A DNA stretch of 64,000 nucleotides. Origin: an uncultured Campylobacter sp. (lineage in GTDB: Bacteria; Campylobacterota; Campylobacteria; Campylobacterales; Campylobacteraceae). A program made the position numbers and the translations under genes. The first letter of the stretch is position 1. The number at the start of each line of letters is the position of its first letter. The stretch covers positions 38,516 through 102,515 of the forward strand of contig NZ_CALJPG010000022.1 of NCBI RefSeq assembly GCF_937980635.1, read 5' to 3'. This document shows, piece after piece, positions 3,124 through 64,000 of this stretch. The notes beneath the pieces are model-generated. The model was not told the origin of the DNA. It was given only the letters and a program-made list of their open reading frames with translations, and did not search any database.

Positions 3124-3219
3124 AGTAAATCCTTTGTGAAAAATTTCGACCATTTTATCGCAAAATATTTTAACTTTGTTTTAGGCGGCGGAATTTCGCG
3201 AACGAGGTTGCGGGTGTAG

Positions 3220-4500: not shown

Positions 4501-4546
4501 ATTTTGGCTTGAGATTGGTCTGCGATCGGCCTTCAATCGGTCTGTA

Positions 4547-5308: not shown

Positions 5309-5845
5309 TTTTGTCCTTTTTTTTCAAATCACGCAGGCACGTGCTATGAACGCCTGTCAGAATTCTCGCAATTACGATCGCAAACCGCTCATGCACCGCA
5401 AAGTGCATACGAGCGCCTGCTAGAATTCCATGCAATTTTATAAAATTCCACGGAATTATATCGGATTTTGCCGCACGGCTCCTGCTTAAATTTTATGAAA
5501 TTTACCGCGCGATTGCCGTTTTAGCTCCATGCATTTTATCGCGTCACGCACAAGCTGCAAAATTCTATAAAATTTTAGCAATGCAAAGCGGCGAAATTTT
5601 ACCCAAATTCTACAAGATAGCCCTATAAATTTCGCGCAGCTATCCGTGAAATTTGCAGAATTTTATAAAGCGATCTTTTGCTAAAATTTTATGAAATTTC
5701 GACGCGCTATACTTAAGGCGCGCGGCAAAATCCATAAAGCCAGCCCTACTTATGCGGCAAAACAGCGCAAAATTCCGCCGCACAGCCGCACTAAAACTTC
5801 ATAAAATTTCATCGCCCCGCTCGTACCAGATAAAATTTCGCCGAC

Positions 5846-7908: not shown

Positions 7909-8230
7909 TTTGTCTTCTTAAAATTTCGATAATTCTTGCCTTAAACTCATCAAACAGCGCACAAATTTCCTCTTCCGCCGCGTCGTATTCGCTAAGATCC
8001 TGCTTTAGCGAGCCTTGAAAATCTTCTAACTTCAATAGCAGAGTATTCTTTGAGAACGGTAGCGCCAAATCTCCGCCCTCGCCGATCAAAAATAGCGGTT
8101 TTGCCGAGCTTTGCGGCTCATCGCTTATCACAAAGTCGCAATCCTGCGCGCTTACGGTATGGTCCTTCAAAAATAGCTCCAGCGTCTTTTGCAAAATTTC
8201 GCAGTCGCAATCGATAAAAGCTTTCATCAA
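7901..8230 (-). CDS. hypothetical protein
   Basis: 109-aa ORF overlapping both neighbours by 4-8 nt in a tightly packed minus-strand operon. Confidence 0.55.
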   Translation of the reverse strand: MMKAFIDCDCEILQKTLELFLKDHTVSAQDCDFVISDEPQSSAKPLFLIGEGGDLALPFSKNTLLLKLEDFQGSLKQDLSEYDAAEEEICALFDEFKARIIEILRRQNG

Positions 8231-16827: not shown

Positions 16828-18202
16828 CGCCGCGCGAGCGTTTTTTACAAATCTATTAGGCGCAGATAACGCCTATTTTGACGAGGCTCATCGCACGGCA
16901 TACTGCTACGACGCGACGAAAAGACGCTGCCTGCCGGACGGCGTGCTTTTCCCGCGAAGTGAGGACGATGTCAGTCAAATTTTAAAATTCTGCAACGAAA
17001 ATTTAATCCCCGTAGTTCCAAGAGGCGCAGGTAGCGGTTTTACGGGTGGATCTTTAGCTGCAAACGGCGGAGTGATTTTGGCATTTGAAAAGCATATGAA
17101 TAAAATTCTAGAAATCGACATGCAAAATCTACTCGCCGTAGTCCAACCCGGCTGTATAAATATCGATCTGCAAAAAGCAGCCGCAGCGCGCGGGCTGTTT
17201 TATCCACCCGATCCTGCAAGCCAGGATTATTCCACGCTAGGAGGCAATGTCGCCGAAAACTCAGGCGGTATGCGCGCGGCAAAATACGGCATCACCAAAG
17301 ACTACGTAATGGCACTGCGAGCGGTACTGCCTAATGGCGAGGTAATTCGAGCGGGTAAACGCACTATAAAAGATGTCGCAGGCTTCAACGTGGCAGGAAT
17401 TTTAATCGCAAGCGAAGGTGCGCTTGCTGTCATCACCGAAATCACGCTCAAGCTCATCCCAATGCCAAAGCTTAAAAAGACCGCGATGGGCGTTTTTCCT
17501 AGCGTAGATGCGGCAATGAATGCCGTGTATAAGACGATGGCTGCCGGTATCACGCCCGTGGCGATGGAATTTTTAGACGCGCTGTGCATAGCCGCGGTCG
17601 AGGAGAAATTTCACAAGGGCTTGCCGAAGGGTGCGGGCGCGATTTTGATCTGCGAAACAGACGGCAATTTAGAAGCAGTGCTTTTGGAGGAGCTCGCGCT
17701 CATAAAAGAAATTTTCGTTCAAAACGGCGCGAGCGACTTTCGCATCGCAGAAAGCGAAGAGGAGCGCGCGGGCATTTGGTTTGCGAGACGCAACTGCTCG
17801 CAGGCGATCAATATCTACGGCACGCTTAAGCTAAATGAGGACATCACCGTCCCGCGCTCGCAGCTGCCCGAGCTACTGCGCCGTATCGCGTGCATCGGCG
17901 ATAAATACGGCGTGCGCGTGCCCTGTTTCGGGCACACGGGCGACGGCAATGTCCACACCAACGTCATGGTCGCCGACAAAAAAGATGAAGCTCAAGTGCG
18001 ACGCGGACATGACGCAATCACCGAAATTTTCAAAGCTGCAGTTGGTCTTGGCGGTACGCTCAGCGGCGAGCACGGCATCGGGCTAAGCAAAGCAGAATTT
18101 ATGCCACTAGCTTTTAGCGCAGCAGAGATGGAGCTATTTCGCGCAATCAAAAGGGCTTTTGATCCAAAAGGCATCTTAAATCCCGGAAAAATGGGGCTTT
18201 AA
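16820..18202 (+). CDS. glcD: FAD-linked oxidase, glycolate oxidase subunit GlcD-like
   Basis: FAD_binding_4 motifs PRGAGSGFTGG and C-terminal GEHGIGLSK...DPKGILNPGK. Confidence 0.9.
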   Translation: MNSAARAFFTNLLGADNAYFDEAHRTAYCYDATKRRCLPDGVLFPRSEDDVSQILKFCNENLIPVVPRGAGSGFTGGSLAANGGVILAFEKHMNKILEIDMQNLLAVVQPGCINIDLQKAAAARGLFYPPDPASQDYSTLGGNVAENSGGMRAAKYGITKDYVMALRAVLPNGEVIRAGKRTIKDVAGFNVAGILIASEGALAVITEITLKLIPMPKLKKTAMGVFPSVDAAMNAVYKTMAAGITPVAMEFLDALCIAAVEEKFHKGLPKGAGAILICETDGNLEAVLLEELALIKEIFVQNGASDFRIAESEEERAGIWFARRNCSQAINIYGTLKLNEDITVPRSQLPELLRRIACIGDKYGVRVPCFGHTGDGNVHTNVMVADKKDEAQVRRGHDAITEIFKAAVGLGGTLSGEHGIGLSKAEFMPLAFSAAEMELFRAIKRAFDPKGILNPGKMGL

Positions 18203-18837
18203 AATTAAAATCCTCATCCAACTTCTACGGTGATTTGAAATCGATTTATCCCGCTTACCCCATCTAAAATTCTACTTTCTTACAATATGCCTGCTTAAAA
18301 TTTATCTTGCTTGCAATTTAGCTTATTTACAGGCTACTTCGAGTTAGTTTTAAGCTTGATCTACCCATTGACAGATCGATTTTGCTTGCTTTGCAATGAA
18401 TAATTTTACTTGTTTATTGATAGATTCCATCCACTTGAGAATTGATTTTACTTACTTCGCAGATTGATTATCCCGTGCGATCTTTTTCGGATATTTTTGC
18501 CATATCAGCTGTGATTGCATAGCTACTCGCTAATTTGCACAATTTTTTCTCTTTCAGGGATGCGCTAGGATTATGATGAAATCCCTATATCGCGATGGAT
18601 AAGTCTATGACAAATTAAAATTATGTCAATAAAATCCATAGCATAGATTAAATTCCAAACTTCCAAAATACTGAAATTTTAAAATCACTATCTATCGCCA
18701 TTATCGCAATATGCGAAATTTCAGCAATAAAATTTAAAGATAAAATTCCGCAAAATTTCATAAAATCCCATAAAGCTCCGCAAAATTTCTAAGTTAATTT
18801 CGATCTCGCCGTGTTATCATCTAGTTAGCCCTGCCAT
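18203..18837. repeat. AT-rich noncoding spacer with degenerate 20-25 nt pyrimidine-rich repeats
   Basis: Series gatttatcccgcttac / aaattctactttcttac / aaatttatcttgcttgc / aatttagcttatttac / gattttgcttgctttgc / aattttacttgtttattg / gattttacttacttcgc. No ORF of 60 aa or more. Confidence 0.4.
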
Positions 18838-19524
18838 CTATTTAGTAGCATTAGCCTCGCTTGCATTTATTTTATTCATCGCGGCTACTACGTTGCAGCT
18901 AAACTCCGCTCCCAGCTTGCAGGCTTTGTCGTAGTAGATCATCGCTTTATCCAGATCCGGCTCGCCAAATTCCTTCTTTGAATACGCTAGCCCGACCCTC
19001 TGGCATCCCTCCGCCAAAGCAGCATCGCAAGATTTGAGGAAAAACTTAAGAGCGCTCTGATAGTCTTTTTCTTCGTAGCTAGCGACCGCAGCGTTTAAGC
19101 AGCCCTCGCCTAGTCCCAAATCGCATGATTTAGCAAAAAAAGTGAACGTATTTTTCTTATCCGCATTTTTATAAGAGATTATCGCGGCGTTGTAGCAAGC
19201 TTTGGCGGCTCCCAGCTCGCACGCTTTGGAATAAAACCGCGCGGACTTGCCCTTATCTTTCGTAGTTTTATATAAATTCTGCTCGTCGTAATATAAATCT
19301 CCCGCGATAGCACAGCTATTTTCCAGCCCCGCTTCACAAGCTTTTTCAAACGGCTTTTTTGCTGCCTCATAATCGCGCTCCTCAAGCAAATATGCTCCGT
19401 AATCTTCGCACGAATTAGCCCTACCGATGCCGCATCCGACAAATGAGACCGCCTGCGGGAAAAATATCTGCGCGAGCAAGTAGGCTGCTACGATTAGTGC
19501 GGCAATCGACGCTAAAATTTTCAT
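18838..19524 (-). CDS. Sel1-like repeat, Hcp-type cysteine-rich secreted protein
   Basis: Signal/anchor helix followed by repeated A..FY.KAC.LG...C motifs with paired cysteines spaced about 36 aa apart. Confidence 0.85.
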   Translation of the reverse strand: MKILASIAALIVAAYLLAQIFFPQAVSFVGCGIGRANSCEDYGAYLLEERDYEAAKKPFEKACEAGLENSCAIAGDLYYDEQNLYKTTKDKGKSARFYSKACELGAAKACYNAAIISYKNADKKNTFTFFAKSCDLGLGEGCLNAAVASYEEKDYQSALKFFLKSCDAALAEGCQRVGLAYSKKEFGEPDLDKAMIYYDKACKLGAEFSCNVVAAMNKINASEANATK

Positions 19525-20303
19525 TTTTGCTCCTTTTAAATTTTAAAAATAATTATAGCAAAAAGCGAGGGATAAAATTTTAATTTTTGATAATAGCTGT
19601 GAAATTTCCGGCGAATTCTCGTAAAATTCCTATCAAAATCCCAAGCAAAATTTTAAATAAAATTCTAAACGGAGCTTTGAGCGGAATTTTAAAAAGGCAA
19701 ATTAAAATTTTACTTGCAAGATTGTTTTTATGGCTGGCTTGCCTCAATTTTTACTCGCACGTCTATGCGGTATCCACGGCGCCTGCAGTATTTATAATAA
19801 AGCATTTAATCCTGAGGTCTGAAACACCTACAGCCTCTACAATGGTGATTTATCAGAGCGATAATCTAGTGTGTAAAATATTTTGTCGCGTACCAAGCCC
19901 GCAACAAGCATCTTGCCACGCCCTAGAAAACTTTTGAAAATTTCGCATTGTTGCTTAGAAATTTTAAAAAATTTTACGCCACCATCTTTTAAATTTTATC
20001 TTAGAAATCGGCTTGCCTATGCCAAAATCGCAGGCGTAATGCGTCTTTAGGCATTTTGGCTCAATACCCATGATTCTTAGATCCACACCACTTAGATATG
20101 TGAGTCTTAAAATAATCAAGGCCGCGCAGTATCTGTATCGCGCATGTAAATTTCATCTATGTAGGCGCACCCACACATCATCCATGAGCACCATATTTAC
20201 CGCGATTCCGCGTGCTGTATCCAAAGCGTATCGGCTGCGAACGATAAATTTCCACCTCTTACCGCCTGCGCGATCCATAAAATTTATCCTCTCAGCCTTG
20301 CAT

Positions 20304-39805: not shown

Positions 39806-40113
39806 GAGTTTTCTCCTTGTGGGTTGCCCCGAAATTTAGGTTTCTCCTCCACACCCGTTAACATTTGTTTTTGACAAACGCAACCAAATTTTAGGATTGG
39901 TGTGTGTGAATTGAAGCTGGGATTATATTTAAATCTTTATTAAAATAAGCTTGATTATATAAAGATGAGAGATCGAGAGTAATATAATGATGTAAAGTTT
40001 ATTATTTCATCAAGGCATCCTTATATTGAAATTTCGTAATTTTTTGATAGTATACAAAAAAGGTCTAACAATTTTAAAAATCAATAAAAAATTCTATCGT
40101 TTATTTTTAGCGC

Positions 40114-40794
40114 TTAATACATCAACCTTGGCAAGAAATTTTCAAATTCATTCACTATAAATTCACGAGTTTTTGTTTTATCTGCACCATTAATAATATT
40201 GATACTATAGACTGTAGCGAATATGCTAAGTTGATTTACGCAAGTTAAAATTGTTGAAATTTGTCGTCCGTATGTCATATAAAGCAAAGCTGATACAAAT
40301 CCATCATTCTCAGAATAGTTTCTAATTACGCATACCTTAACTTCGTTGTCAATTTCACCATTTAGAATTCCGCAAATTTTAAATGCGATATCGATGAAAT
40401 AGTATATATAGGCTATATCCGTATCGTTATAGTCATATTTCAATCTTACTTGCCATTGCGATTCGAAAAAAGCGCAGACATCGGAAAAATTATGAAATTG
40501 TTTTTTAGACCCACGCAAAAGCACATCAATAACAAAATTTGAAATTCCAACTTTGCCAAGTTTAAAACCATAGAATTCATCTAAAAATTCTATAAAAATA
40601 TTTTTGGCTTTACCTTTGTTTTTTAAAAATCTTTCAAAGTCCATATATGTATTAGACATTTTCATTGTAACATCTGTATTCTCTTTATCTATGTCTATGC
40701 TGCTACTAGTATCATTTCTATTATTGGTTTTTATATCATCACTAGTTGCCCAGCCTATTGCAGTTAAAATTATAAAAAATATGATAACTTCCAT
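40114..40794 (-). CDS. hypothetical membrane-anchored protein (orphan)
   Basis: 226 aa. Strong AGGAG RBS 6 nt before ATG. One N-terminal TM helix. No recognisable motif. Confidence 0.65.
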   Translation of the reverse strand: MEVIIFFIILTAIGWATSDDIKTNNRNDTSSSIDIDKENTDVTMKMSNTYMDFERFLKNKGKAKNIFIEFLDEFYGFKLGKVGISNFVIDVLLRGSKKQFHNFSDVCAFFESQWQVRLKYDYNDTDIAYIYYFIDIAFKICGILNGEIDNEVKVCVIRNYSENDGFVSALLYMTYGRQISTILTCVNQLSIFATVYSINIINGADKTKTREFIVNEFENFLPRLMY

Positions 40795-40820
40795 AAAATA
40801 CTCCTAATAAAAAATGACTA

Positions 40821-41294
40821 TTAGAAATTTGGAAAATCAGATATAATACGATCATAATCGCCAATTCTATATATTTTCATTATGGCTGCGATTATGGCGT
40901 ATGAAAAAAACTGCACCGTCAAAGGGGTATCTGCCAACGTCAGCATACATTCCCCATCGGTTGATGTTCTTATACACATTGTAGTAATAAAATTTTGTCG
41001 TAAATTCATCTGCATATCAAGCAATATATCACCCGCAACAGTATCATATGTCATAAGCGGTACTTGATATTTATCCTTTGAAATTCCGCTATCCTCGCAA
41101 AATCTTAACGATATACGATCATCACTATGATACATAGGACATAATTGCTCATAAATAAATTCTTCAGCATCTGATTTGATATTAAATTCATGCATGATCT
41201 TTTCGAAAGCAATTTGAACATATGATGGGATTAGTAGTATCTTTTTGGTTTCTAATATCTCTTTTAAAATTTTTATATTTTCCATAATTTGCAT
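40821..41294 (-). CDS. hypothetical protein (orphan)
   Basis: 157 aa. First gene of the two-gene minus-strand unit, 26 nt upstream of the next gene. No recognisable motif. Confidence 0.55.
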   Translation of the reverse strand: MQIMENIKILKEILETKKILLIPSYVQIAFEKIMHEFNIKSDAEEFIYEQLCPMYHSDDRISLRFCEDSGISKDKYQVPLMTYDTVAGDILLDMQMNLRQNFITTMCIRTSTDGECMLTLADTPLTVQFFSYAIIAAIMKIYRIGDYDRIISDFPNF

Positions 41295-41310
41295 CCAAAT
41301 TTTAAAATTT

Positions 41311-41324
41311 CTAACTATAGTTAG
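41311..41324. promoter_or_regulatory. perfect 14-bp palindrome CTAACTATAGTTAG, candidate XRE operator
   Basis: Located in the 90-120 bp divergent intergenic region, next to overlapping TATAAT-like boxes (attataat at 41335-41342). A GTTAG half-site recurs at about 41358. Confidence 0.4.
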
Positions 41325-41413
41325 TTGATAGCGGATTATAATCCAAATATACTTATGGTTAGTTTAATTATAGGTAGGCGTATTTGAAGGATTGCACGAT
41401 AACCGATGAGAAG

Positions 41414-41644
41414 ATGGACGCTATTTACAAGGCTATCGGCGATAATGTCAAGCGCATCAGAACGGTAAAAGGCGTTTCGCAGCTTTCGCTCGCCCTTGCC
41501 ATCGGACACAAAGCCGTAGGAACGATCTCAATGGCTGAACTTCATATCAATAAAAAACATTTCAATATTGAGCATTTGATAAAAATAGCAGATGTTTTGG
41601 AGGTAAATATTTCGGAATTTTTTGTTTTTGATCCACAACTCTAA
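41414..41644 (+). CDS. XRE-family helix-turn-helix transcriptional regulator
   Basis: IGDNVKRIRTVKGVSQLSLALAIG...ISMAE...HLIKIADVLEVNISEFF is a classic HTH_3 pattern. ATG 41414 preferred. A TTG at 41384 is an alternative start. Confidence 0.8.
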   Translation: MDAIYKAIGDNVKRIRTVKGVSQLSLALAIGHKAVGTISMAELHINKKHFNIEHLIKIADVLEVNISEFFVFDPQL

Positions 41645-41649
41645 ATTGA

Positions 41650-42381
41650 TTAAATTTTATTCATCACAAAGCCGCAGAAGCGCCCGGTAGCGCCGTCTTT
41701 TCGGTATGAAAAATGCCGCTCGCTCTCGAAGGTACAGCGCGGATCAAATTTAACGTTTCGCACCCCCGCAGCTGCGAGCTCGTCGCGCAGCGCGGCGTTC
41801 ATATCGAAATGCCCCTGCGTTTTGTAGCGCTCAAACTCGCCCAGATCAAGCCCGCCGAGTTCGTAGTTTCGCGCCTTGATATTCGCGCCCACGAATACTT
41901 TCAGCTCCGCAGCGACGCAGCCGAAGCGCTCGTTCATCAAATTTATCGCATTGGTGCAGATCCGCTGGATTACGCCTGCGCGCCCCGCATGCACCGCAGC
42001 GACCACTCCGCGCCGCTCGTCCGCGATCAGCACGGGCGAGCAGTCCGCTACCAGCACGCACAGCGCCACGCCGCGCAGATCGGTCACGAGCCCGTCGCAG
42101 GGCGGGATTTCAACGCCACCTGCGCGTAAAATTTCAACTTTGTTTGAGTGGATCTGACGCATAAATTTTAAATTTCGCGGCGCGATACCGAGTGCGGCAG
42201 CTAAAATTTCGCGGTTTTGCGCGACGTTTTGCGGATCGTCGCCTACGTGATCTCCTAAATTTAAGCTCGCGTATGCTCCGCCGCTTACGCCGCCAAGCCG
42301 CGTGCTAAAGCCCGCCAACACGCCGCATCCGTCCAATACAAACTCAAGATTTTCTCTGCAAATTTCGATTTTGCCCATCAT
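41650..42381 (-). CDS. pgeF: peptidoglycan editing factor PgeF (YfiH/laccase-domain protein)
   Basis: GFSTR.GGVS..y.slNlg.hvgD, QIHSNKV, ADC.PV and HAGRAG motifs. Confidence 0.85.
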   Translation of the reverse strand: MMGKIEICRENLEFVLDGCGVLAGFSTRLGGVSGGAYASLNLGDHVGDDPQNVAQNREILAAALGIAPRNLKFMRQIHSNKVEILRAGGVEIPPCDGLVTDLRGVALCVLVADCSPVLIADERRGVVAAVHAGRAGVIQRICTNAINLMNERFGCVAAELKVFVGANIKARNYELGGLDLGEFERYKTQGHFDMNAALRDELAAAGVRNVKFDPRCTFESERHFSYRKDGATGRFCGFVMNKI

Positions 42382-45495: not shown

Positions 45496-46200
45496 CTTTC
45501 GCCCCAATGAAATTTGAGCGCAATTGTGGCAAAATTCGCTTGAAAAAACGGTTAAATTTTAAATCCGTTCTCATTTCGTCGGCTAAATTTCGCCTTAATT
45601 TACGCAAAATTTTATCGCGAATCACATCGTTTACGGGGCATGCTGCTATTTATATGTATCACATAGCGATAATTTCATCCGCATTCTTATTTTAATTCGC
45701 TTCGTTTATATGCAACACTTGCCAATCTCCACTACGTCGATATACCGCCAGATACCCATACATTATACCTCGACGACAGAACGCGCTGTCGTTAAATTTT
45801 ACCCACGCCAAAATTAAAATTTTAAAATTACTCATCGCCACAGTCTTAACAAGCCGTATAAAATTTAAAGCCGCGCATCAACCAAAACGATCACGTTTAA
45901 ATTTAGACGCCCCCATACCGTACTCTACTAAAATTTTATCTTTTCTACACGACGAAAGAGCCGTTAAATTTTAGCGTGCGTGTGTGAATTCTTCTTCAGC
46001 TACCTTATTGTGGCTTCTGCGGAGTGACTAAATATCTAAAAAATCTCGGAATTATCGTAAACCAAAAAAATATGGCGGATATCACAGAGGCGCCATTGTA
46101 CTATTAATAACAGATTTGTTAGGCTTTATAAATGAATTAATCAGCACAAATAACGAGCTTAAAATAATTTATAAGTATTAATAAACAAGTTATTTTTAGA

Positions 46201-47478
46201 TCAAGTGTTTATGAAACATATTAGAAAAATATTTTTACCGTCTTCGTACTTGTATTTTAAGGTGTGGCCGTGTTTTATAAAAATTTGGTTTGCGATATAA
46301 AGCCCAAGGCCAAGTCCAGAATTTGAGGTCTCGAATTTCCTGTTAAAAGCTCTTTCAAAATCAAGTCTTTCCGGTTCAAGCTCATCTCCTGCGCTACTTA
46401 TGCAGACGGCGTTTTTATCTATATTTACAAGGACTTTGCCGCTAGAGTATTTTAAGGCGTTATCGATTAAATTTTTAATTCCGGTTGCATAAAGCTCAAA
46501 ATCAACCTCAACCGCACTTATTTCCGCATCCGCTCGCACTTCTATGCGGCTCGTGTCTTTTAGTAAAAGCATATCTACCGAGTGATCGACGATGTCTATA
46601 ACTCGGTGCTTGTTTTTCTTAAGCTCCCACTCATTGGATACTAGTTTTTCTACCTTGACGACTTCGCCCAGTATCATCTCAAGCCGTATAAAAATTTGTT
46701 TTAACCTATCTTTGACCTTATCGTCTTGTAAAATTTCGGCTATCATGTCCGCCATGATTCGCCCTTTCATTATCGGGTTGCGAAATTCGTGCAAGATGTT
46801 ACGTAAAAATAGCGCTCTAGCCTCTTTTATCGCATCTATTTTTTGCATCGTCGTATTAAATTCGCTAGCGATTTGGCCTATTTCATCATTTGCTTCTACT
46901 TTTATCAGTCTAAATTTGTCTTCTTCTCCCGCCCTTCTTATCATATTTTTTAAATTTCTGAGTCTCAGCAATTTTTTTAAGACGACTATGAAAAATGCAG
47001 CCATTACGATATTTACTATAAGCCAAAGTATCCAAATGTTATGCAAAGAAATTTCTTCTAAATTTTCTAAAGGCACATCGTTTTTCGCAATGTCATCTTT
47101 GCTTGATAGATCAAGCCCTGCCGCATCCATAATGCGCGAAAACATTTTAGGATCAATAGAAGAAAATCTAGGTACAAAGTAGAGCTTTTTGTTGTATCTT
47201 ATCATATCGGCATACGAATCGCTAAAAATTTTCTCACCATTTTGCCTGATCTCATTTGGATCGAGATCACTATTTTTAAGTCCGATTTGCGCTAGCTGCT
47301 TGGTTATATTGCCATCTTCTTGCCCGCGTATACGCATACCTAACATAAAGCGCTGAAAAGTAAAATACTCCGCATCCTTTATTTGCCTCTTGGATTCGAT
47401 GAAAAACGCCGAATTTACTATAACTAGAGCGACAAAAAAGAAAAATGATATTAATTTGATTATGGATATATTACGCAT
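46201..47478 (-). CDS. sensor histidine kinase
   Basis: Two TM helices flank a periplasmic domain. H-box LHEFRNP, N-box IDNALKYS, G-box SGLGLGLYI. Confidence 0.88.
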   Translation of the reverse strand: MRNISIIKLISFFFFVALVIVNSAFFIESKRQIKDAEYFTFQRFMLGMRIRGQEDGNITKQLAQIGLKNSDLDPNEIRQNGEKIFSDSYADMIRYNKKLYFVPRFSSIDPKMFSRIMDAAGLDLSSKDDIAKNDVPLENLEEISLHNIWILWLIVNIVMAAFFIVVLKKLLRLRNLKNMIRRAGEEDKFRLIKVEANDEIGQIASEFNTTMQKIDAIKEARALFLRNILHEFRNPIMKGRIMADMIAEILQDDKVKDRLKQIFIRLEMILGEVVKVEKLVSNEWELKKNKHRVIDIVDHSVDMLLLKDTSRIEVRADAEISAVEVDFELYATGIKNLIDNALKYSSGKVLVNIDKNAVCISSAGDELEPERLDFERAFNRKFETSNSGLGLGLYIANQIFIKHGHTLKYKYEDGKNIFLICFINT

Positions 47479-48142
47479 TGATAAATTTATACCCTATACC
47501 GCGCACGGGGTGAATGAATCGCGGATTTTTAGGATCGTCTCCTATTTTTTGACGCAAGCGCCCTATGGCAACATCGATGCTTTTTAGTCCGCTTTGAAAT
47601 TTCGCCTGACCCAAATTTATCAAAATATCTTCCCTTGGCACGACCAACCCCTCTTTTTCATAAAGGTAGATAAAGATGTCAAATTCCGCTTTCGTTAGCG
47701 CTATCTCCTCTTTGTTTTTTATGACGATACGCCTTTGTTTATCGACGCAAAAGGTTTTGGAGTCGTTGCTGGTTTGTATCCCTCGACGGAGTATCGCTCT
47801 TAGCCTAAATGCAAGCTCTATGGGTTCGTACGGCTTTGCCATATAGTCATCCGCCCCAAGCTCAAAGCCCTTTATCTTATCTAGCGTTTCGCTGCGGGCC
47901 GACGATATGATGATAGGTAACGATGGATAGCTGTGTCTTACGTGCTTGCACACTTCAAGGCCGTCCATGTCGGGCAAGCCAAGATCAAGCACCAATGCGT
48001 CAAAAGCATTTTTTGCGTCTAGAATTTTAAGTCCTTCAACCGGATTTGTGACTATGGTTACGCCAATCTCGCTTTTTGCCAATGCAAATTTTAAAAGCTC
48101 GGCCAGTTCAAGATCGTCTTCTATAAGCAAAATTTCTATCAT
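47471..48142 (-). CDS. OmpR-family response regulator
   Basis: MIEILLIEDD..., phospho-acceptor context DALVLDLGLPDMDG, KPY, and winged-helix C-terminus VRGIGYKF. Start trimmed to ATG 48142. Confidence 0.9.
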   Translation of the reverse strand: MIEILLIEDDLELAELLKFALAKSEIGVTIVTNPVEGLKILDAKNAFDALVLDLGLPDMDGLEVCKHVRHSYPSLPIIISSARSETLDKIKGFELGADDYMAKPYEPIELAFRLRAILRRGIQTSNDSKTFCVDKQRRIVIKNKEEIALTKAEFDIFIYLYEKEGLVVPREDILINLGQAKFQSGLKSIDVAIGRLRQKIGDDPKNPRFIHPVRGIGYKFINA

Positions 48143-48291
48143 AGTAGCTATTATATCAAATTTAAAATTTAAAACTAAAAAATATTTTTTAGTTAATGTT
48201 ACCAAAATCTTACCGTTTTTGATAGGCCTACATGTTATAATTTCGCTCATAAATCCAAAGATGATGGTGTAAAAATTTAAAGGAGGTTATA

Positions 48292-56159: not shown

Positions 56160-56339
56160 CCGTGAATTTTACAATTTGATCTAAATTTTAATTCGCGCGA
56201 CTTTAATTCTAGAGCAATTAGCCTAGATAAAAAAATATGATGAAATTTTAATCAACATACTACAAAATCAAATGAGGTCTTAATTTCAAGGGCAGACAGC
56301 TGAATGCTAGAAAATTTTAATTGATTTTAAGTGATGAAA

Positions 56340-56361
56340 TGGTGACCCACAGGGGGTTTGG
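56340..56361 (-). other. tRNA 3'-end-like fragment (candidate att core)
   Basis: The reverse complement reads ccaaaCCCCCTGTGGGTCACCA, which fits T-stem 3' half + 7-nt acceptor strand + discriminator + CCA. No D or anticodon arms are adjacent. Confidence 0.3.
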
Positions 56362-56516
56362 CTTTAGTGTATATATCGCCTAAAATAGGTAATATGTAAA
56401 TTTTAGTTATACACTTTTTTATACAAAAATTTTAGTAAGCATCTAACGGGATTTATAAATTTTATGAAAAAACCAATTATACCAAAGATGCACAAAATCA
56501 AAAGAAAGGGTAGCTA

Positions 56517-58073
56517 GTGAAAATTCCTCCAAAGCTTTACTTAAAATTTGCAAAAGATATAGAACCGGAAATCTTTGAGAACAAAACGCCTAAATTTCAC
56601 CTGGATGTCCTGAAATTTATCGATGGCGAAGATCAATACAAAGCCGTAGTCATATTTCGCGGTAGTGCAAAAACTACACTGCTTAACAAAATTTATGTCG
56701 TTAGCAGGCTGTATTTTTATGCAGAGCCTTTCATTATGATAGCTTCCGCAAACGATACGAAAGCAAAGCTATTCGTCGAAGCAATAAAAAATTCAATCGA
56801 TAAAGCGGCCGCCAGAGGCTACGCGATAGAGCGCGGTAAAGTTTGGAACAAAGACCGTATAGAGGTCGTCGTTAATCGCGGCAAAAAAGACGGGAACGGA
56901 AAAGATATCGAGCGGACCTGTCACGTAGTATCGCTCAGCTCCGGGCAAGATCCGCGCGGCGCCAACATCGACAACATGCGCCCAACTCTTATCATCATCG
57001 ATGATTTGGAGAGCAAAGACGGGCAATTCCCGGTTGGGAACAAGGCGAGTCGCCAAAAGCTTAGAGGTTGGTTTTATGCGGATCTATTGCCCGCCGTGCA
57101 CCCCGCTCGCGGCAAAGTGGTAGTGTTAGGCACAATCCTGCACGAGGATAGCATCTTAAACAATATCGTGAACAATGAGAATATAGAAGAAACCAGCAAA
57201 CAAGGATGGCGACATATAAAAATTCCTATCATAGAAAACGGCGCGAGCGCCTGGCCGTCTCGTTTCCCTTTATCGCGCATAAAAGCAATACAAAATCAAC
57301 TCGTTTCAAAAGGGCTTGCAAATGAATTTTACCAGGAATATATGTGCGCGGCGATCGATCCACAAAGAGCGATTTTCAAACGCGAGTATTTCCGCTACTT
57401 CGATCGCGTAGAATACGACATCAGCGCAGAACCAGAAGCTCTAAATATTACAGACGGCGTAAATATACGAACGCTGCAAATTAGAAAGGCCATAAATTTA
57501 ACGCTAGGCGGCGAAAAAATAGAGCTTGCAAAATGTCAAATTTTTACAACAATCGACCTGGCAAGCGCGAATGGTCGCGACCAAACAGCAATGATAACTT
57601 CGGCTGTCGATAACAGAAATCGCATATTCATAATAGACATCAGCGCCGGGCACTGGACGCCGTTTGAAAAGAGCGTCGAGATCATACGGATTTTTCAAAT
57701 ATTCGGCTGCACCAGGATAGGAATCGAAAAGGCCGGAATGCAAAACGATTTTTTCTATACGATTGACATCATACAAAAAATGACGGGAGTGCACCTACCC
57801 ATTGATCAACTTAGCCACGGCGGAAAGGCAAAAAATACCCGCATATCAAACCTAGAGCCATATTATCGCACAGGGCAAATTTATCACAACGCAAGCATAG
57901 ACTCAAGCACTGAGCTAGAGGCGCAACTCCTCAGCTTCGATAGCGAAGTCGAGAGCAAAGAGGATGATCTGATGGATGCGCTCGCGTATTTACAACAATA
58001 TATCGTGGGGCGAGAATTTGATGAGCCAGACTACGAGGACGAGGACTACGAGGGCGCCGAGGCATGGGCGTGA
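56517..58073 (+). CDS. phage terminase large subunit
   Basis: Walker-A-like FRGSAKTTLL, Walker B LIIIDDLES, and a C-terminal RNase-H-like nuclease region (TTIDLAS..., DDLMDAL). GTG start. Confidence 0.85.
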   Translation: MKIPPKLYLKFAKDIEPEIFENKTPKFHLDVLKFIDGEDQYKAVVIFRGSAKTTLLNKIYVVSRLYFYAEPFIMIASANDTKAKLFVEAIKNSIDKAAARGYAIERGKVWNKDRIEVVVNRGKKDGNGKDIERTCHVVSLSSGQDPRGANIDNMRPTLIIIDDLESKDGQFPVGNKASRQKLRGWFYADLLPAVHPARGKVVVLGTILHEDSILNNIVNNENIEETSKQGWRHIKIPIIENGASAWPSRFPLSRIKAIQNQLVSKGLANEFYQEYMCAAIDPQRAIFKREYFRYFDRVEYDISAEPEALNITDGVNIRTLQIRKAINLTLGGEKIELAKCQIFTTIDLASANGRDQTAMITSAVDNRNRIFIIDISAGHWTPFEKSVEIIRIFQIFGCTRIGIEKAGMQNDFFYTIDIIQKMTGVHLPIDQLSHGGKAKNTRISNLEPYYRTGQIYHNASIDSSTELEAQLLSFDSEVESKEDDLMDALAYLQQYIVGREFDEPDYEDEDYEGAEAWA

Positions 58074-58427
58074 ATTCGCGCTGGCAAGACAAATGCAGGC
58101 GGACACCGCTCCCGCAGGCGCAAAGCCCTAATGCTTACGCTCGTTTTGCAGATCGTGGGACAAAAAATGCGGGCTTAAATTTTAAGCAGATAATAAAACG
58201 TGCTCGTATCTTTCGCGGGACAAAAAGTCTAAATTTTGAAATTTTTCTCTACACCGTCAGTATTCGGCGGAAAAATTCTGAGTGGGGTCATAGCCCCCCA
58301 TCAAGAGAGCAGGTGGGCGCTATCAAATCCCCACAGCAGCGCGCCCGCAATAGATTATGACATAGGCGCGGGCAGGTACATAGGATTTTAAGCAAATAGT
58401 TATCAAGACCGAGCCGAAATTGCGCGC

Positions 58428-58620
58428 GAAACTTAAACGGCTCACGTCTAAATTTTCACAGTTTCCTTAAGCGAAAACGGACAAATTCGCGTCATTTTTG
58501 CCGCTTGAAACTTAAACTTAATTTTCACGGCTCTTTCAAATGCCTATTTTAGGGCGTTTTATAAAATTAACTATTGAAAATAATTCTTTTCAAAAATACG
58601 CATTTTCACGAAACTTGACC
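58428..58620. repeat. three spaced copies of the GAAACTT(A/G)A(A)C / ATTTTCAC word pair
   Basis: Copy 1: gaaacttaaac (58428) with aattttcac (58451). Copy 2: gaaacttaaac (58507) with attttcac (58521). Copy 3: attttcac-gaaacttgacc (58602-58620). Confidence 0.4.
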
Positions 58621-59321
58621 CCAGACCCCGCCCAGAACCTTAAACCGAATTCGCTTAAATTTTGATAGATTTTTTGCCGCAAATCCGCGCTCTGTCCCAA
58701 AAACGGAGCGGTGCACCCCCGAAAAACCCGCTTGCCGCCCCTCCCCCGTCGGTATTTCCTACTATCTGCTTTGCGAAGCTTCGTGCGCTGGTTCTCGCGC
58801 CAAGGTGCATACGTAAGCAGGCGGCGTTGGCGCTTGCCCGGCGCGGGCGCGCTTGCGGACGCTAGAGGGCTTCGGCTCGATCAAAGCGGCATGCCAAGCG
58901 CCATATACCGCTCACGAGCACAGCCCGGAGTGCCTAGACGTTTTAACAAGTCTATGTAGAGGGCGCTTGCCCGGCGTGGTTGCGAGGATCGCAAAAGCCG
59001 CCTGCTCCGTCCGTGTGGCGATGTTGCGCGGGCGAGTGCGCGGTTTTGCATGGGTTAAATTTGGCTGGATTTCGTTATTTGTGGCAGCGGGGTCGTTACG
59101 AATGTGTGCGGCGATTGGTGCGCCAATTCGCGCCCGGGCGCTGCATGATGAGCCGTATCGTCGTGACAGACCTAAAGCTCCGCGGCTATTTCATCTTTGA
59201 TGAGCTCTTTGATCTTGTCAGCGAAGATAATTCTCTATTAAGGTTCACAAAGCTCGCACGCTTGAGTTTTTTTAAAAAAATGGAGTTATAGTATTCATCA
59301 CTATCTTGCCTGAATTTATAG

Positions 59322-61355
59322 CTATGTAAAATTAGGGATATTTTTTTCTTTATTAATTATATTAATAAAGTCCGCATAAGATCTATAAGCCCTTTCTATA
59401 AGCATATTATATTTTAAAACCTCTATATTATAACTTTTAAACACATCCATGTCGTCTTTTCTGAATTCAATGGTATTAGCACCATTAACACCAGCGTCTT
59501 CTGAAATAATAAAGTATACTTTTATATCTCTGGGGTCTATCATTTTTAAGCTGCTATCGCTTTGCATTACAGCATCTTTATATTTTCGTATTTGATCTAT
59601 CATTACTCCAGTAGTAACATTGGCGTGTCCTGTTGGTGTATTCTTTTTTAGTTCTACTATTATAGGATATGGTTCTTCTGCGACCTTTATTAATAGATCA
59701 ATATAGTTTTTCTTAAGTTTATTGTTCTTATCAATAGCCTTTAAATATCTATTTTTAGTAATTTCAAAGCTTGTACTGGCATTTAAGTCCTGATTCCAGT
59801 GCGGGTTTATAAGCCAAGGATGTTTATGCAAATGGTTATTAAAGAAACTTTCTAATGTATTGTTTTCTTCCATCATTCTTTTTAATTCATTAATAGCAGC
59901 GATTCTCTCTTTAACTAGTTCAAAAATATTTATTTCTTCGGAGCGCCCTATTTTAGACATAAGCTTATTTATAAGTTTGACATAATTTTTATCAATCATA
60001 TCTATTGAGGATAGGCTTTTTTGTATTTCTGAAAATTCTATATTATCCACAGTTCTAACTATAGAAGACACGATATTTTGGATTTCATTCTTCTGTATAC
60101 CCTCGCTTTGATCTGCAAAAGACTTATTAATAAGCAACGCAAGCATTTTTTCATTCATCTCTCTTTTATCGTCACTTAACCCATCAAGCCATTTTTTATA
60201 GCTTTCGTTTTCTCTTATAAAATCTGGTAATTTTAAAACGGCTTCTTTTTGTCTGAAATTCGTCCAAAGTTCAGCAAATTTATTTCTTATTTTTCCTAGT
60301 ATCTCTATAAATTCTTCAACATATTCATTTGACTGATCTAGTCCATCCCTGCTTGATGTTATCGGAACCTGCAAAATATCTAACAAAAAATCCGCATGAA
60401 CTTCACCAACCAAGTATTGATTTGCCATTCTTGCACTACCGCTATTTTTAAAAATATTTTCATCGGCTATTTTCTTGTTTATATATACGACAGTTGAATT
60501 GAAATTATAGTCTTTTGTTTGAAGTTGTCCGGGAGTTAGAACACTGCCAAACCAGCCTTTTAGTCCTTTGTTCTTCTCAAAATAGTCTTTTAAATCTTTG
60601 CTATTCGTATCATATTTTACTTTTTTGGTTTTATCTATATTTGGGAACATATCGTTGATTTCTTCTTCGTTATATCCAAAATAAACAAGGAATTCTATAT
60701 TTTTATAGTATTCGTGTGTTAGTAAGTCAACTTCCTCTCCATTTAAAAACACTTGAAATTTATCAATATGCGAAGCTATATAAAATCTTCTGGATAGCTG
60801 TATACTTAAATTTTCATACGCATTTCTACTATTTCTTATAAGATCATCAATCTTAACTATAAAACCTGATTTGTATTTTGCGTAATCCCTAAGCTCGCAG
60901 GGCAAATCATCAACAAAATCATAATCTACCGAGTGGGTTATTTCATCTTTTATAAAATCATCATATACTAATTCAAAAGTAAGCCATTGTTTTGAGGATA
61001 ACGTTTTTGTGTATACTTTATATTTTCCACCTAGACTAAATGCAGCGAGTTTTCCTATTCCTTTTTGCCCCATTGGAGCTCTTTCGCTTAGATTATTAAA
61101 CGATTCTTCTATTTGTTTTTCTATACCTATAATCGCATATTTATGTTCTATCTCATCTAAAGACATCCCTTTTCCATTATCAATAATATATATTTCTCTA
61201 TTGCTTAGTTTGATATCAACTCTCGTTGCATATGCATCATATGAATTTGCAACTAACTCGGCTAGAGCTGGTGGATTACTGCTATACAAGTTTCTTCCTA
61301 AATGGGTAGCTACTCGCCCAGCAATAGAAAATTTAATTTGATTGTTACTAGCCAT
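59322..61355 (-). CDS. GHKL (HATPase_c_3/MORC-like) ATPase fused to a Shedu/DUF4263-like PD-(D/E)xK nuclease
   Basis: Bergerat motifs ELVANSYDA (aa 33-41), DNGKGM (59-64), GQKGIGKLA (96-104). C-terminus HKHPWLINPHW, then ID553LL...IVE568LK570 and Q588IRKY (D...ExK...QxxxY). Confidence 0.85.
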   Translation of the reverse strand: MASNNQIKFSIAGRVATHLGRNLYSSNPPALAELVANSYDAYATRVDIKLSNREIYIIDNGKGMSLDEIEHKYAIIGIEKQIEESFNNLSERAPMGQKGIGKLAAFSLGGKYKVYTKTLSSKQWLTFELVYDDFIKDEITHSVDYDFVDDLPCELRDYAKYKSGFIVKIDDLIRNSRNAYENLSIQLSRRFYIASHIDKFQVFLNGEEVDLLTHEYYKNIEFLVYFGYNEEEINDMFPNIDKTKKVKYDTNSKDLKDYFEKNKGLKGWFGSVLTPGQLQTKDYNFNSTVVYINKKIADENIFKNSGSARMANQYLVGEVHADFLLDILQVPITSSRDGLDQSNEYVEEFIEILGKIRNKFAELWTNFRQKEAVLKLPDFIRENESYKKWLDGLSDDKREMNEKMLALLINKSFADQSEGIQKNEIQNIVSSIVRTVDNIEFSEIQKSLSSIDMIDKNYVKLINKLMSKIGRSEEINIFELVKERIAAINELKRMMEENNTLESFFNNHLHKHPWLINPHWNQDLNASTSFEITKNRYLKAIDKNNKLKKNYIDLLIKVAEEPYPIIVELKKNTPTGHANVTTGVMIDQIRKYKDAVMQSDSSLKMIDPRDIKVYFIISEDAGVNGANTIEFRKDDMDVFKSYNIEVLKYNMLIERAYRSYADFINIINKEKNIPNFT

Positions 61356-62388
61356 TTATATATCCTTCTAAATGTTTTAAGATGCTTTTACCTATATGCT
61401 CTCCTAGCTTAGGCGGAACGGCATTGCCTATTTGTTTGGCAATTTTGCGCATGCATATTTTTTCATTTTTGTCTATAAATTTATATCCCATTGGAAACGA
61501 CTGCAATAAGGCTCCTTCTCGTAAAGATATTGCCCTATCTTGCTCTGGATGTCCAAATCTACCTGTACCATAATTAATAAACTGCGTTGTAAGGGTGGGA
61601 GCAACATCATCCCAGCTCATTCTACCATATACCGACTTATAACTTTGCCCAGTTGCTTTTTTGTAACAATTAGGTAGAATTGCCTCGTCCCAGTCATGCC
61701 ATGATCCACCAGGTTTGGATTGTTTGATTCTTTGAATATTTATATCTGTTAGCGTAGGGCTTATATGTAGCCTATCTTTTTTATTATCAACTGCTCCGGC
61801 AACTATCTTATCAATTTTATATATCATATCCCTAACGGTTACTTTTTTAAATTTGGACTCTAAGAAATCAATATTCCCGAATTTAGATGCCAGAAGTAAA
61901 AGCCTCTTTCTTCTTTGTGCTACGCCATAATCGCTAGCATCATGAATCTTAAAATTTACGCTATAGCCTTGCGCTTTTAAATCGTCTACAAAATCAGCAA
62001 AAACCTTTTCTTTTTTAAGCTCTGGAACATTTTCCATTGAAACTATTTGAGGTGAAGTTTCTTTAATAAGTCTTAAAAAATCATACAATAATCCCCAGTC
62101 TTTATGTAACGATCGATCTTTTTTATTTTTCTGGTGCGCTGAAAAAGGCTGGCAAGGAGCACAACCGACTAAAATTTTGATATTTGCGTCACCAAATAAA
62201 TTATTGACTTCTTCGCCACCCACTTCACAAATGCTTCTGTGCAAAAATTTTCCATGATTATTTTGTTCATAGGCAAATTTGCAGCTTTCGTCAAAATCAA
62301 TTCCAGCTACAACTTCAATGCCGGCCTGGCTGAGCCCATAGGTTAATCCACCTATACCACAAAATAGATCTACTGCAGATATTTTCAT
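61348..62388 (-). CDS. dcm: DNA (cytosine-5)-methyltransferase
   Basis: Motif I DLFCGIGG, IV GCAPCQPFS, VI ENVPEL, VIII QRRKRLLL, IX RAISLREGALLQSFP, X GNAVPP. Confidence 0.93.
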   Translation of the reverse strand: MKISAVDLFCGIGGLTYGLSQAGIEVVAGIDFDESCKFAYEQNNHGKFLHRSICEVGGEEVNNLFGDANIKILVGCAPCQPFSAHQKNKKDRSLHKDWGLLYDFLRLIKETSPQIVSMENVPELKKEKVFADFVDDLKAQGYSVNFKIHDASDYGVAQRRKRLLLLASKFGNIDFLESKFKKVTVRDMIYKIDKIVAGAVDNKKDRLHISPTLTDINIQRIKQSKPGGSWHDWDEAILPNCYKKATGQSYKSVYGRMSWDDVAPTLTTQFINYGTGRFGHPEQDRAISLREGALLQSFPMGYKFIDKNEKICMRKIAKQIGNAVPPKLGEHIGKSILKHLEGYING

Positions 62389-62413
62389 TTTTACCCACCG
62401 GTTTAAATGTTTA

Positions 62414-62419
62414 ATTATA
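62414..62419 (-). promoter_or_regulatory. candidate -10 box (TATAAT on the minus strand) for the methyltransferase operon
   Basis: TATAAT lies 24 nt upstream of the ATG in an AT-rich leader. No experimental support. Confidence 0.3.
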
Positions 62420-62759
62420 ACTTGAAATAGCTTTTAAAATAATTATTTAAACATAATGTATCTAAAATCATCCAGACAACACGCCTTACGAATTTGCTCC
62501 TCCATGCCATTTAGGGAGCAATCTTTAGATTTCGTTTTATAGCGCCCAAGGAGGAGAGAGGACCCCTTGAGCGCGGTAATTGTATGGAGGCGCGTCCTAA
62601 AAAATATAAACTCGCCGCCGCAGATATTGCAAGTCTAGCCGAACCCTCGCAAGCTCGCGGGGTTCACTCATCAACTCTCGGATTTAATTAGCCAATCCTC
62701 AGATGATGGCTGCGAGCGAGCCGCGGTTTACGAAGTCATAAACTCGCCGCGGCGGGCTA

Positions 62760-64000
62760 CTATTGTGAAAACTTCCCGATCTGCGGGCGGGAGATTAGCG
62801 CGGGATCGAATTTCTTAGGCGCGAATTTGCGCTGCTTTTTCTCGTCACGTAGCCGCTTGAGGCTCTGCACGTCAAACTCGAAGCCCTCCGCGTCCGCCAC
62901 CTCTTTGAAAATTTCAAGCTTCCGATCGATCTGCTTCTGCTTTTCGGCTTTTTCCGAAGCGCTCATCTTTTCGAGTTTTTCATTGTGCTTGATCGCCTTT
63001 TCGACCTTGTCGGCGTCTTTGCTATCGGGCACTTTGACGTATTCGAGCTCCTCGCGCTGCTTGCGTAGCTTGCCGAGTTCGGCGTTGAGCTCCTTTTGCT
63101 GATTGAAGCGGCGCGCGCCCACGCCTCGCTTCAGGATGCCCGCGTATCCCAGCTCGTCCTTGTTGTAGTCTTTCGGCGCGAAATCTTTATCCCCCGTGAT
63201 GTCGCTAAGAGCCTGCTCGCCGAGCTGCTGCCCGTATCTGCCGATCGTAAGCGTAGGTAGATAGTTTTTCGCAGCTTCTTTGACGCTCTTGGCGACTTTC
63301 ACGGCCTTTGGATCGTCCTCGGATGTGATGTTGTAGCCCAGCGTCGATTTGCCGTTTGCGATATTGACTAGACCGCCCACGAAGCCCCAGCCGCCCTCAA
63401 AAACGTCGTCGAAACGGAAGCCGGGCGCGGCTCGTCCTGCGTTGAAATATGTATCGCTATCCCCTATCCTCGCCCACGCTTTGAGTCCGAAAACGTTAGG
63501 GAATTTCGAGCTTTGCGCCCATTTTGGCTTGGTTAGATTTTCCTTTTCGGTATCTGCGATAATCGAGCTTAGCGATAGCCCCGCGGCGTCCGCGGCGATA
63601 AAGGCCGCCTGCATCATCGCGAAACGATGCGGATTTTTGAGTATCGCCTTGATCACCATCGGCGTCGATTTGACGGAGTAGTGCAAAAACGGCATCAATC
63701 CCCACTTATCGCTCTTACGCAAGAAGCCGTTGAAATGGGTGCTGTAATCGACATAGTGATACTGCGCGTCGCTCATCGCCGCAGCAAGCTCCTTTTCGCT
63801 AAATTTGCTTAGATCTCCCGCAGCGTATCCTCGCTTTGCGGCGATCGCGTCAAGATTTTTCTTAAATCGCGCGATCTTGAAAATTTCATCCTCCCAAGCG
63901 TAAGCCTTTCTGGCCGCTCTGCCCACCGCCGAGCCCTCGCTCATGTAGATATTTTTGCCCGCGGTGCTTAGAAAATCCATAGCCTTGCCGACGATGCCGA
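62760..64000 (-). CDS. phage-associated large protein, C-terminal part (5' end outside the window)
   Basis: The frame stays open to the window edge. Gly/Ala-rich globular part followed by a Lys/Glu coiled-coil tail. Function unassigned. Confidence 0.6.
   Translation of the reverse strand, partial: GIVGKAMDFLSTAGKNIYMSEGSAVGRAARKAYAWEDEIFKIARFKKNLDAIAAKRGYAAGDLSKFSEKELAAAMSDAQYHYVDYSTHFNGFLRKSDKWGLMPFLHYSVKSTPMVIKAILKNPHRFAMMQAAFIAADAAGLSLSSIIADTEKENLTKPKWAQSSKFPNVFGLKAWARIGDSDTYFNAGRAAPGFRFDDVFEGGWGFVGGLVNIANGKSTLGYNITSEDDPKAVKVAKSVKEAAKNYLPTLTIGRYGQQLGEQALSDITGDKDFAPKDYNKDELGYAGILKRGVGARRFNQQKELNAELGKLRKQREELEYVKVPDSKDADKVEKAIKHNEKLEKMSASEKAEKQKQIDRKLEIFKEVADAEGFEFDVQSLKRLRDEKKQRKFAPKKFDPALISRPQIGKFSQ

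Follow-up and report, generated by a model that had tools for sequence, protein, structure and literature searches.

Does a methyltransferase gene coupled to a gene for an ATPase-nuclease fusion represent a new kind of defence, or a known kind in divergent sequence? This question was raised by a 64,000-nucleotide (nt) stretch of DNA from an uncultured Campylobacter sp. (contig NZ_CALJPG010000022.1, positions 38,516 to 102,515; hereafter the window), in which two adjacent genes encode a C5 DNA methyltransferase of 346 amino acids (aa), called M below, and a 677-aa protein, called R, that combines an N-terminal GHKL ATPase with a C-terminal PD-(D/E)xK nuclease. A first-pass annotation of the window had proposed that the pair is an undescribed ATP-dependent restriction or defence module, unless it should turn out to belong to a subtype already known. 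The pair is indeed already classified, as a known subtype, under NCBIfam NF050001, PADLOC REase_II and the name paraMORC3. Judged from its sequence, it adds a divergent member to a known Type II restriction-modification (R-M) family and is not a new kind of defence. We put a probability of roughly 0.8 on the cassette being a phage-borne Type II R-M system of the HgiDII/BbrUII (paraMORC3 plus Dcm) family, including the mechanism that we propose for it below.

Family membership of the two proteins

R matches the NCBIfam model NF050001 ('BbrUII/HgiDII family restriction enzyme') with an E-value of 2.7e-104, aa 9–669 aligning to positions 3–647 of the 659 in the model. It further matches the PADLOC REase_II models PDLC03485 (E 1.2e-32) and PDLC03419 (E 1.5e-30) and, over its full length, PHROG 6203, a phage family of unknown function (E 1e-83). 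A search with the C-terminal domain of R alone retrieved 71 distant relatives that could be aligned as full-length matches (mean identity about 25%). All 71 match both NF050001 (best E 3.4e-238) and REase_II (best E 3e-207), and R is therefore best regarded as a divergent branch of one coherent family.

The partner protein M is the complete Dcm-type methyltransferase that the first-pass annotation had described. It carries motifs I, IV, VI, VIII, IX and X (FCGIG at aa 9, PCQ at 78, ENV at 119, QRRKR at 158, RE at 290 and GNAV at 321), with a target recognition domain (TRD) at about aa 169–285, and it matches the Pfam family DNA_methylase over profile positions 2–324 of 324 (E 3.4e-61), TIGR00675 (dcm) with 144 bits, over the cutoff of 100.65 bits, and the PADLOC MTase_II model PDLC03378 (E 2.5e-87). 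The two adjacent genes hence match the REase_II and MTase_II models, as individual model matches and not by the system-calling rules of PADLOC. When M was compared with the methyltransferases that are paired with restriction endonucleases of the family, its TRD was 40–84% identical to theirs. Identity to the TRD of the Dcm protein of the P2-like Escherichia phage PhiR44_1 amounts to 52.6%, next to 49.7% and 56.7% for the two catalytic halves, and that to a Deinococcus methyltransferase to 39.7%, similar to the identity of the catalytic core. M is thus orthologous, TRD included, to the methyltransferases that accompany bona fide endonucleases of the family, as represented by the PhiR44_1 and Deinococcus proteins.

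PhiR44_1 also links R to a named protein. When phage genomes were searched with tblastn, this phage yielded a homologue of R (27% identity, 96% coverage), which its depositors labelled 'ParaMORC3' and which adjoins the gene of the 'Dcm protein'. In a BLASTP comparison the two proteins are 27% identical over aa 15–663 of R (E 7e-51) and collinear, all catalytic motifs included. The PhiR44_1 protein and a homologue from a Deinococcus plasmid score 751 and 753 bits on NF050001, both over its 550-bit cutoff. The same PhiR44_1-type pair occurs in 30 complete E. coli genomes, where RefSeq names it 'BbrUII/HgiDII family restriction enzyme' plus 'DNA cytosine methyltransferase', some of the records giving the nuclease as 'ATP-binding protein' instead.

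The paraMORC3 group was defined by GHKL and S5 domains followed by a C-terminal nuclease of restriction endonuclease (RE) fold with E-D-ExK motifs, and was placed in R-M neighbourhoods with cytosine methylases (DCM), a standalone subset existing as well (Iyer, Abhiman and Aravind 2008, PMC2292703). R has all of these elements, namely a GHKL domain with its ATP-binding motifs, an S5 domain and an RE-fold nuclease with E-D-ExK, and the first-pass annotation had rightly cited this paper for MORC-like GHKL ATPases in R-M contexts. For R.HgiDII itself, a GHKL domain was recorded at the N-terminus, while the C-terminal domain could not be assigned to any fold (Orlowski and Bujnicki 2008, PMC2441816).

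The pair from the window resembles the HgiDII/BbrUII systems (R.HgiDII and M.HgiDII in REBASE) in that these likewise consist of two genes, one for a 5-methylcytosine methyltransferase and one for an endonuclease of 650–680 aa with an N-terminal GHKL domain. The endonucleases are homologous and collinear over their full length, the methyltransferases are homologous including the TRD, and these systems, too, are found on phages and plasmids. There are also differences. The endonuclease identity of R to the PhiR44_1 member is just about 27%, and the low-GC clade to which R belongs always has M before R, co-oriented and overlapping, in contrast to the convergent pairs of PhiR44_1 and Deinococcus. 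Moreover, paraMORC3 proteins were described as prevalent in proteobacteria and bacteroidetes and include the standalone subset, while the clade of R occurs in Campylobacterota, Firmicutes, Actinobacteria and Mollicutes, always with a linked methyltransferase.

Other multigene systems were considered and set aside. The core genes of DISARM, Druantia and Mza (DrmA/B/C; DruE and others; MzaA/C/D/E) are absent among the neighbours of the cassette, which led to the rejection of these systems; a PADLOC MzaB match of R (E 0.011) covers the GHKL domain only, and matches to DrmMII and DruM reflect generic C5-methyltransferase homology. ATP-dependent restriction of Type I, III or ISP was rejected since neither protein contains a superfamily 2 helicase or translocase domain, the ATPase being of the GHKL type.

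Architecture of R and proposed mechanism

The N-terminus of R was expected to be a Bergerat-fold ATPase, and this is confirmed by its motifs (E33-x3-N37-x2-D40-A41, D59-N-G-K-G-M and G96-Q-K-G-I-G) and by a match to Pfam HATPase_c_3 (E 4.4e-19). None of the motif residues varies among 45 close homologues, and across the 71 distant ones they are at least 90% conserved. In the distant set, G317 and R336 (TSSRxGL) of the following domain do not vary at all. In an AlphaFold2 (AF2) model of full-length R (mean predicted local distance difference test score, pLDDT, 76), the N-terminal approximately 400 residues gave Foldseek matches to the ATPase modules of MORC2/3/4, TRAP1/Hsp90 and SMCHD1 with E-values down to 7e-13. 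The alignments to the MORC3/4 modules extend over about 390–450 columns, with TM-scores, normalised to target length, of 0.53–0.57. Since they run past the GHKL domain, the S5/transducer domain is evidently also present; its boundaries are an estimate from the secondary structure of the predicted model. Long helices follow at aa 344–371, 418–438 and 455–496. For aa 1 to about 400 of R, the GHKL plus transducer modules of MORC, SMCHD1 and Hsp90 are thus the best structural matches, and there are weak sequence matches to MutL. Unlike the eukaryotic MORC and SMCHD1 proteins it is without CW, SMC-hinge and coiled-coil chromatin domains, and it is without the C-terminal dimerisation/endonuclease domain of MutL, the effector being a PD-(D/E)xK nuclease instead.

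At the level of sequence, a phmmer search of full-length R against PDB sequences returned marginal matches to MutL, HtpG and PMS2 only, all within the GHKL domain, and a full-length family profile yielded mostly Hsp90 and MutL GHKL matches. Because GHKL matches dominated the profile search and the N-terminal module dominated the fold search, the C-terminal domain was profiled alone and its 198 aa were modelled apart. The resulting AF2 model (pLDDT 80.7, predicted TM-score 0.80) has a PD-(D/E)xK fold. In a Foldseek search of the PDB its top matches were the E. coli SduA structures 8ps5 (E 4e-5) and 8ps4 (E 7.5e-5), with query-normalised TM-scores of 0.51–0.52, followed by the PD-(D/E)xK proteins AF1548, VC1899, McrC and MspJI. 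A C-terminal profile built from 31 family members found as its best PDB sequence B. cereus SduA (8ti8; E 0.0019, profile positions 2–157, motifs aligned), then NucS (E 0.016) and EndoMS (E 1.1).

The catalytic motifs agree with this assignment. All elements of the predicted nuclease layout are present at the residues given by the first-pass annotation, namely HPWLINPHW (aa 512), D553, E568-L-K570 and Q588-x3-Y592, to which E502 can now be added as motif I. The profile alignment puts E502, D553, E568/K570 and Q588 on motifs I–IV of Shedu as defined by Gu et al., and E502, D553, E568, K570, Q588 and Y592 are invariant in the 45 close and 71 distant homologues. With the GHKL residues nearly invariant across the same 71 sequences, both active sites of R look functional, and the motif and domain pattern in the two proteins is not due to chance. 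Among the profile searches that had been suggested, HATPase_c_3 and DNA_methylase gave the expected matches, whereas R has no match to Pfam SduA_C/DUF4263 at E ≤ 1 (PDDEXK_9 alone appears, with E 0.039) and none to the PADLOC SduA models. Since a direct Pfam match is missing, the Shedu-type assignment of R rests on the PDB profile, the fold search and the relatives, 20 of the 71 matching SduA_C (best E 2.2e-5) and 3 of the 71 PADLOC SduA. Shedu SduA is thus the nuclease fold closest to the C-terminal domain of R, and R is not filed as Shedu proper because it fails the Pfam SduA_C and PADLOC SduA models. Searched against 1.8 billion representative proteins, the C-terminal 198 aa gave 115 matches, nearly all in proteins of 650–700 aa with the domain at the C-terminus; as judged by phmmer, this version of the domain is not promiscuous in its N-terminal partners.

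How might such a protein act together with a methyltransferase? Our proposal draws on the GHKL enzymes MutL, MORC and GyrB and on mutants of VcSduA, a GHKL-DUF4263 protein of V. cholerae that defends against T1-like phages and in which E27A and K557A abolish phage defence; GHKL-DUF4263 proteins of this kind were formerly annotated as paraMORC3 (PMC12137116). Compared by description only, VcSduA agrees with R in layout, length and catalytic positions, E27 and K557 corresponding to E33 and K570. From a bicistronic message with M before R, M would be translated first and, as its homology suggests, would methylate a specific short site of the resident DNA to give 5-methylcytosine. On binding ATP, the N-terminal domains of R would dimerise and enclose the DNA in a clamp, by analogy with MutL, MORC and GyrB, and the clamp would set the two C-terminal nuclease domains (E502, D553, E568, K570, Q588) to cut the unmethylated target, C5-methylation of the site blocking this cut. 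The earlier idea that M marks self while the ATPase-nuclease attacks unmodified DNA is one that we count as supported, as an interpretation. Such a cassette would probably defend both lysogen and element when other phages or plasmids enter, and would probably also stabilise the element by post-segregational killing.

Which site would be recognised? M.HgiDII is a characterised 5-methylcytosine methyltransferase for GTCGAC (PMC5867850). Because the TRD of M is conserved to the same degree as its catalytic core relative to the methyltransferases of bona fide members, GTCGAC is our leading guess for the target of the cassette, and nothing more than that. A single copy is present in the 56 kb of host sequence, where 5.5 are expected (Poisson P 0.027 if this is the one site specified in advance), and the 7.8 kb of element sequence contain none. 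The type of the related M.BbrUII is disputed, the enzyme being given as an N6-adenine methylase in one report (PMC5829577) and as a 5-methylcytosine methylase homologous to M.HgiDII in another (PMC5867850).

Avoidance of palindromes was tried as a separate route to the recognition site and was rejected, since GTCGAC is weakly depleted and the signals for GGCC, CCGG and GTAC are not attributable to a recently acquired cassette. In the host part of the window (positions 1–56200), GGCC occurs 68 times versus 206 expected, CCGG 78 versus 182 and GTAC 51 versus 101, and AGATCT is also low with 9 observed versus 27 expected. This scarcity suggests long-term exposure of the Campylobacter lineage to other R-M systems.

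Linkage of the two genes and competing explanations

M overlaps R by 8 nt (ATGGCTAG), as the first-pass annotation had noted, and the overlapping reading frames substantiate the tight operonic coupling that it had proposed. Overlaps or gaps of a few nt are seen again in homologous loci. In a linkage scan with one genome per species, 20 loci were found. A closely related C5 methyltransferase (371–800 bits, counting both methyltransferase fragments in locus L016) lies directly upstream on the same strand in all 16 loci that contain a homologue together with upstream DNA, and in each of the 16 the reading frames overlap or abut. The linked loci come from Campylobacter, Lactococcus, Gemella, Gallicola, Streptococcus, Olsenella, Enterorhabdus and Acholeplasma and hence from four phyla, and the pairing anticipated from the window is maintained in every informative case. 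R is fragmented and M intact in locus L018, and both are fragmented in L016; an intact R with a missing or fragmented upstream M was found in none of the scanned loci (L010 begins at R and is uninformative). This asymmetry is what is predicted for a toxic restriction gene guarded by its methylase, but the loci are metagenome assemblies and the pattern is therefore indicative only. Distant relatives adjoin Dcm in C. coli, Rhizobium, Burkholderia and Deinococcus plasmids, in Yersinia phage P37 and in PhiR44_1.

A 50%-identical M-then-R pair lies directly beside phage tail genes at positions 2953–6025 of pSH89 (NZ_CP047217.1), a C. coli plasmid that is conjugative, confers multidrug resistance and carries cfr(C). 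In Campylobacter from livestock, plasmids are therefore another vehicle of the cassette.

Several points weigh against a Type II system of the HgiDII/BbrUII family. The NF050001 score of R, 350 bits, lies under the 550-bit equivalog cutoff, and the low-GC clade, being a divergent sister group, may differ in specificity or behaviour. The depletion of GTCGAC is weak, as the site ranks only fifth among the 64 palindromic hexamers and is non-significant after correction for multiple testing. A promoter and terminator scan of the cassette returned no more candidates than were obtained in shuffled sequence. To our knowledge, the Shedu nucleases studied to date are not sequence-specific restriction enzymes. 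Finally, VcSduA acts as a single gene, without a linked methyltransferase (PMC12137116).

In one competing explanation, R would be a Shedu type 1D sensing nuclease that is not sequence-specific, its GHKL domain responding to a cue of infection, for instance free DNA ends, DNA topology or a phage protein, with M serving as a safeguard or discriminator or being an independent neighbour. DUF4263 proteins with HATPase_c_3 N-termini have been termed Shedu type 1D, and 602 Shedu genes are embedded in R-M loci (Gu et al., bioRxiv 10.1101/2023.08.10.552793). The proximity of the C-terminal domain to SduA structures, the SduA_C matches among the relatives and the solitary action of VcSduA in defence all fit this explanation, as does a Rubrobacter homologue with no methyltransferase annotated within 2.5 kb. 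Nevertheless, we consider it unlikely. Independent neighbours would not keep an upstream methyltransferase with overlapping or abutting frames across four phyla, and loci with an intact R and a lost M are absent from the scan. Shedu is a single-gene defence, while R always comes with a C5 methyltransferase, to which it is translationally coupled; R lacks the PADLOC SduA and Pfam SduA_C matches, and those of its relatives that have been named and characterised are Type II enzymes acting at a defined site.

Far less probable is a function in repair, in which the MutL-like ATPase and NucS/EndoMS-like nuclease would nick the T:G mismatches that arise from deamination of 5-methylcytosine, in analogy to Vsr. 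The MutL/MORC-like N-terminus, the matches of the C-terminal profile to NucS and EndoMS and the frequent pairing of Dcm genes with a repair nuclease, which is general knowledge, are compatible with such a role. Iyer et al. also raised the occasional recruitment of paraMORC proteins to repair (PMC2292703). However, a Deinococcus locus harbours a separate Vsr beside the same pair of Dcm and homologue, and the GHKL-nuclease therefore does not replace Vsr there. The enzymes from which the family was catalogued moreover have restriction phenotypes, VcSduA acts against phages (PMC12137116), and the occurrence on phages, on plasmids and in defence islands, with a patchy horizontal distribution, fits defence rather than housekeeping repair. 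That the cassette is inactive or decaying, its reading frames being intact merely owing to recent acquisition, is equally improbable. In favour of decay, relatives are fragmented in L016 and L018, no convincing promoter was found and the strongly atypical GC content suggests recent arrival. Against it, both reading frames are full length with every catalytic residue kept. Several independent metagenome-assembled genomes moreover encode R with 99% identity, and so does a viral contig although its flanks are just about 95% identical, which suggests purifying selection.

What follows from these comparisons? The catalytic domain of the R.HgiDII family, left without a fold in the 2008 classification, is a Shedu/NucS-type PD-(D/E)xK domain, and a textbook Type II R-M family is thereby tied to the recently characterised Shedu defence nucleases. 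A wider picture is only tentative and, taken as a whole, doubtful: HgiDII-type enzymes might use a Shedu/NucS nuclease gated by a MORC-like ATP clamp, HgiDII R-M and Shedu type 1D might form a single continuum in evolution and mechanism, the only difference being whether a methyltransferase provides for the discrimination of self from non-self, and the low-GC M-then-R clade might be a distinct subfamily with its own specificity and ATP-dependent cleavage. The components of the HgiDII–Shedu continuum are all published already, and no paper stating the link was found in the literature searched. We know of no GHKL-containing Type II restriction enzyme that has been studied mechanistically, and a compact two-gene system with an unambiguous methyltransferase partner would offer a tractable model for the control of a nuclease by a MORC-like ATP clamp that also bears on the prokaryotic ancestry of MORC. 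A practical consequence concerns annotation. Since the clade falls under the NCBIfam cutoff, its members are named just 'ATP-binding protein' in Campylobacter, Helicobacter, Streptococcus and Lactococcus genomes, and R-M surveys and predictions of transformation barriers in these four genera may overlook it. As the discovery of a new defence system the locus has no value, the family being already catalogued.

The phage-like element and its surroundings

The features of the cassette and the element are collected in Table 1.

Table 1. Positions of the cassette, its domains and neighbouring features in the window
Feature	Position	Strand	Basis or remark
Part of phage-like element carrying the cassette	56335..64000		left boundary ~56335
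Terminase large subunit gene	56517..58073	+	phrog_38, E 5e-74
R, restriction endonuclease candidate, 677 aa, HgiDII/BbrUII (paraMORC3) family	59322..61355	-	open reading frame (ORF) and profiles
Shedu/NucS-type PD-(D/E)xK nuclease domain, ~aa 497–677 of R	59325..59867	-	fold and profile
Codons of nuclease motifs I–IV (E502, D553, E568-x-K570, Q588-x3-Y592)	between 59580 and 59852		
All-helical linker/arm, ~aa 344–496 of R	59868..60326	-	AF2 secondary structure; no family assigned
S5/transducer-like middle domain, ~aa 201–343 of R	60327..60755	-	fold alignments; invariant G317 and R336
GHKL (Bergerat-fold) ATPase domain, ~aa 1–200 of R	60756..61355	-	HATPase_c_3 and motifs
M/R overlap, 8 nt, ATGGCTAG	61348..61355	-	R ATG within the 3' end of M; M stop is TAG
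M, C5 DNA methyltransferase, 346 aa	61348..62388	-	ORF and profile matches
Shine-Dalgarno-like site AAGGA	61363-61367		8 nt upstream of R ATG
C-terminus (406-aa ORF) of a 2476-aa LPD23 polyvalent protein	62760..64000, continuing past the window end; 1166-8596 in locus L001	-	

The cassette stands out by its base composition, with 30.4% GC in R and 36.1% in M compared with 45–54% in its neighbours and 47% in the window. The host, an uncultured Campylobacter sp., is represented by metagenome-assembled genomes. A 39.6-kb viral contig of IMG/VR carries a 99%-identical R gene and matches the window at about 95% identity from position 63991 to 56335, where homology ends. The cassette therefore rides on a phage-like element of about 40 kb, and position 56335 is probably one end or attachment site of this element. 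This end lies about 180 bp upstream of the start of the terminase gene, beside the host gene bioB and a 141-aa glutamine-rich ORF, in a gap (56160–56516) with 28.6% GC. A search for tRNA genes near the cassette and the element end found none, and an Rfam search of the cassette neighbourhood found nothing. Directly upstream of the cassette lies the gene for the protein with the Pfam domain LPD23 ('large polyvalent protein-associated domain'), which is typical of the polyvalent proteins of phages and conjugative elements; the C-terminal 406 aa of this protein have no Pfam or PHROG match.

Between the terminase gene and the cassette, 1.25 kb (58074–59321) contain no credible ORF on either strand, although 58700–59200 has 58–68% GC and is stop-poor in several of the six frames. 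The gap gave no Rfam family, tRNA, plasmid match or notable repeat, and it may represent a degraded phage gene or a non-coding element of no recognised family. Elsewhere in the window there are further islands of low GC content, at 40001–42000 (35%), 46001–48000 (38%) and 18001–20000 (40%). Two ORFs without Pfam match lie at 40114–41294, a Sel1-repeat protein is encoded at 18838–19524, and a pair consisting of a histidine kinase and an OmpR-type response regulator is encoded at 46201–48250.

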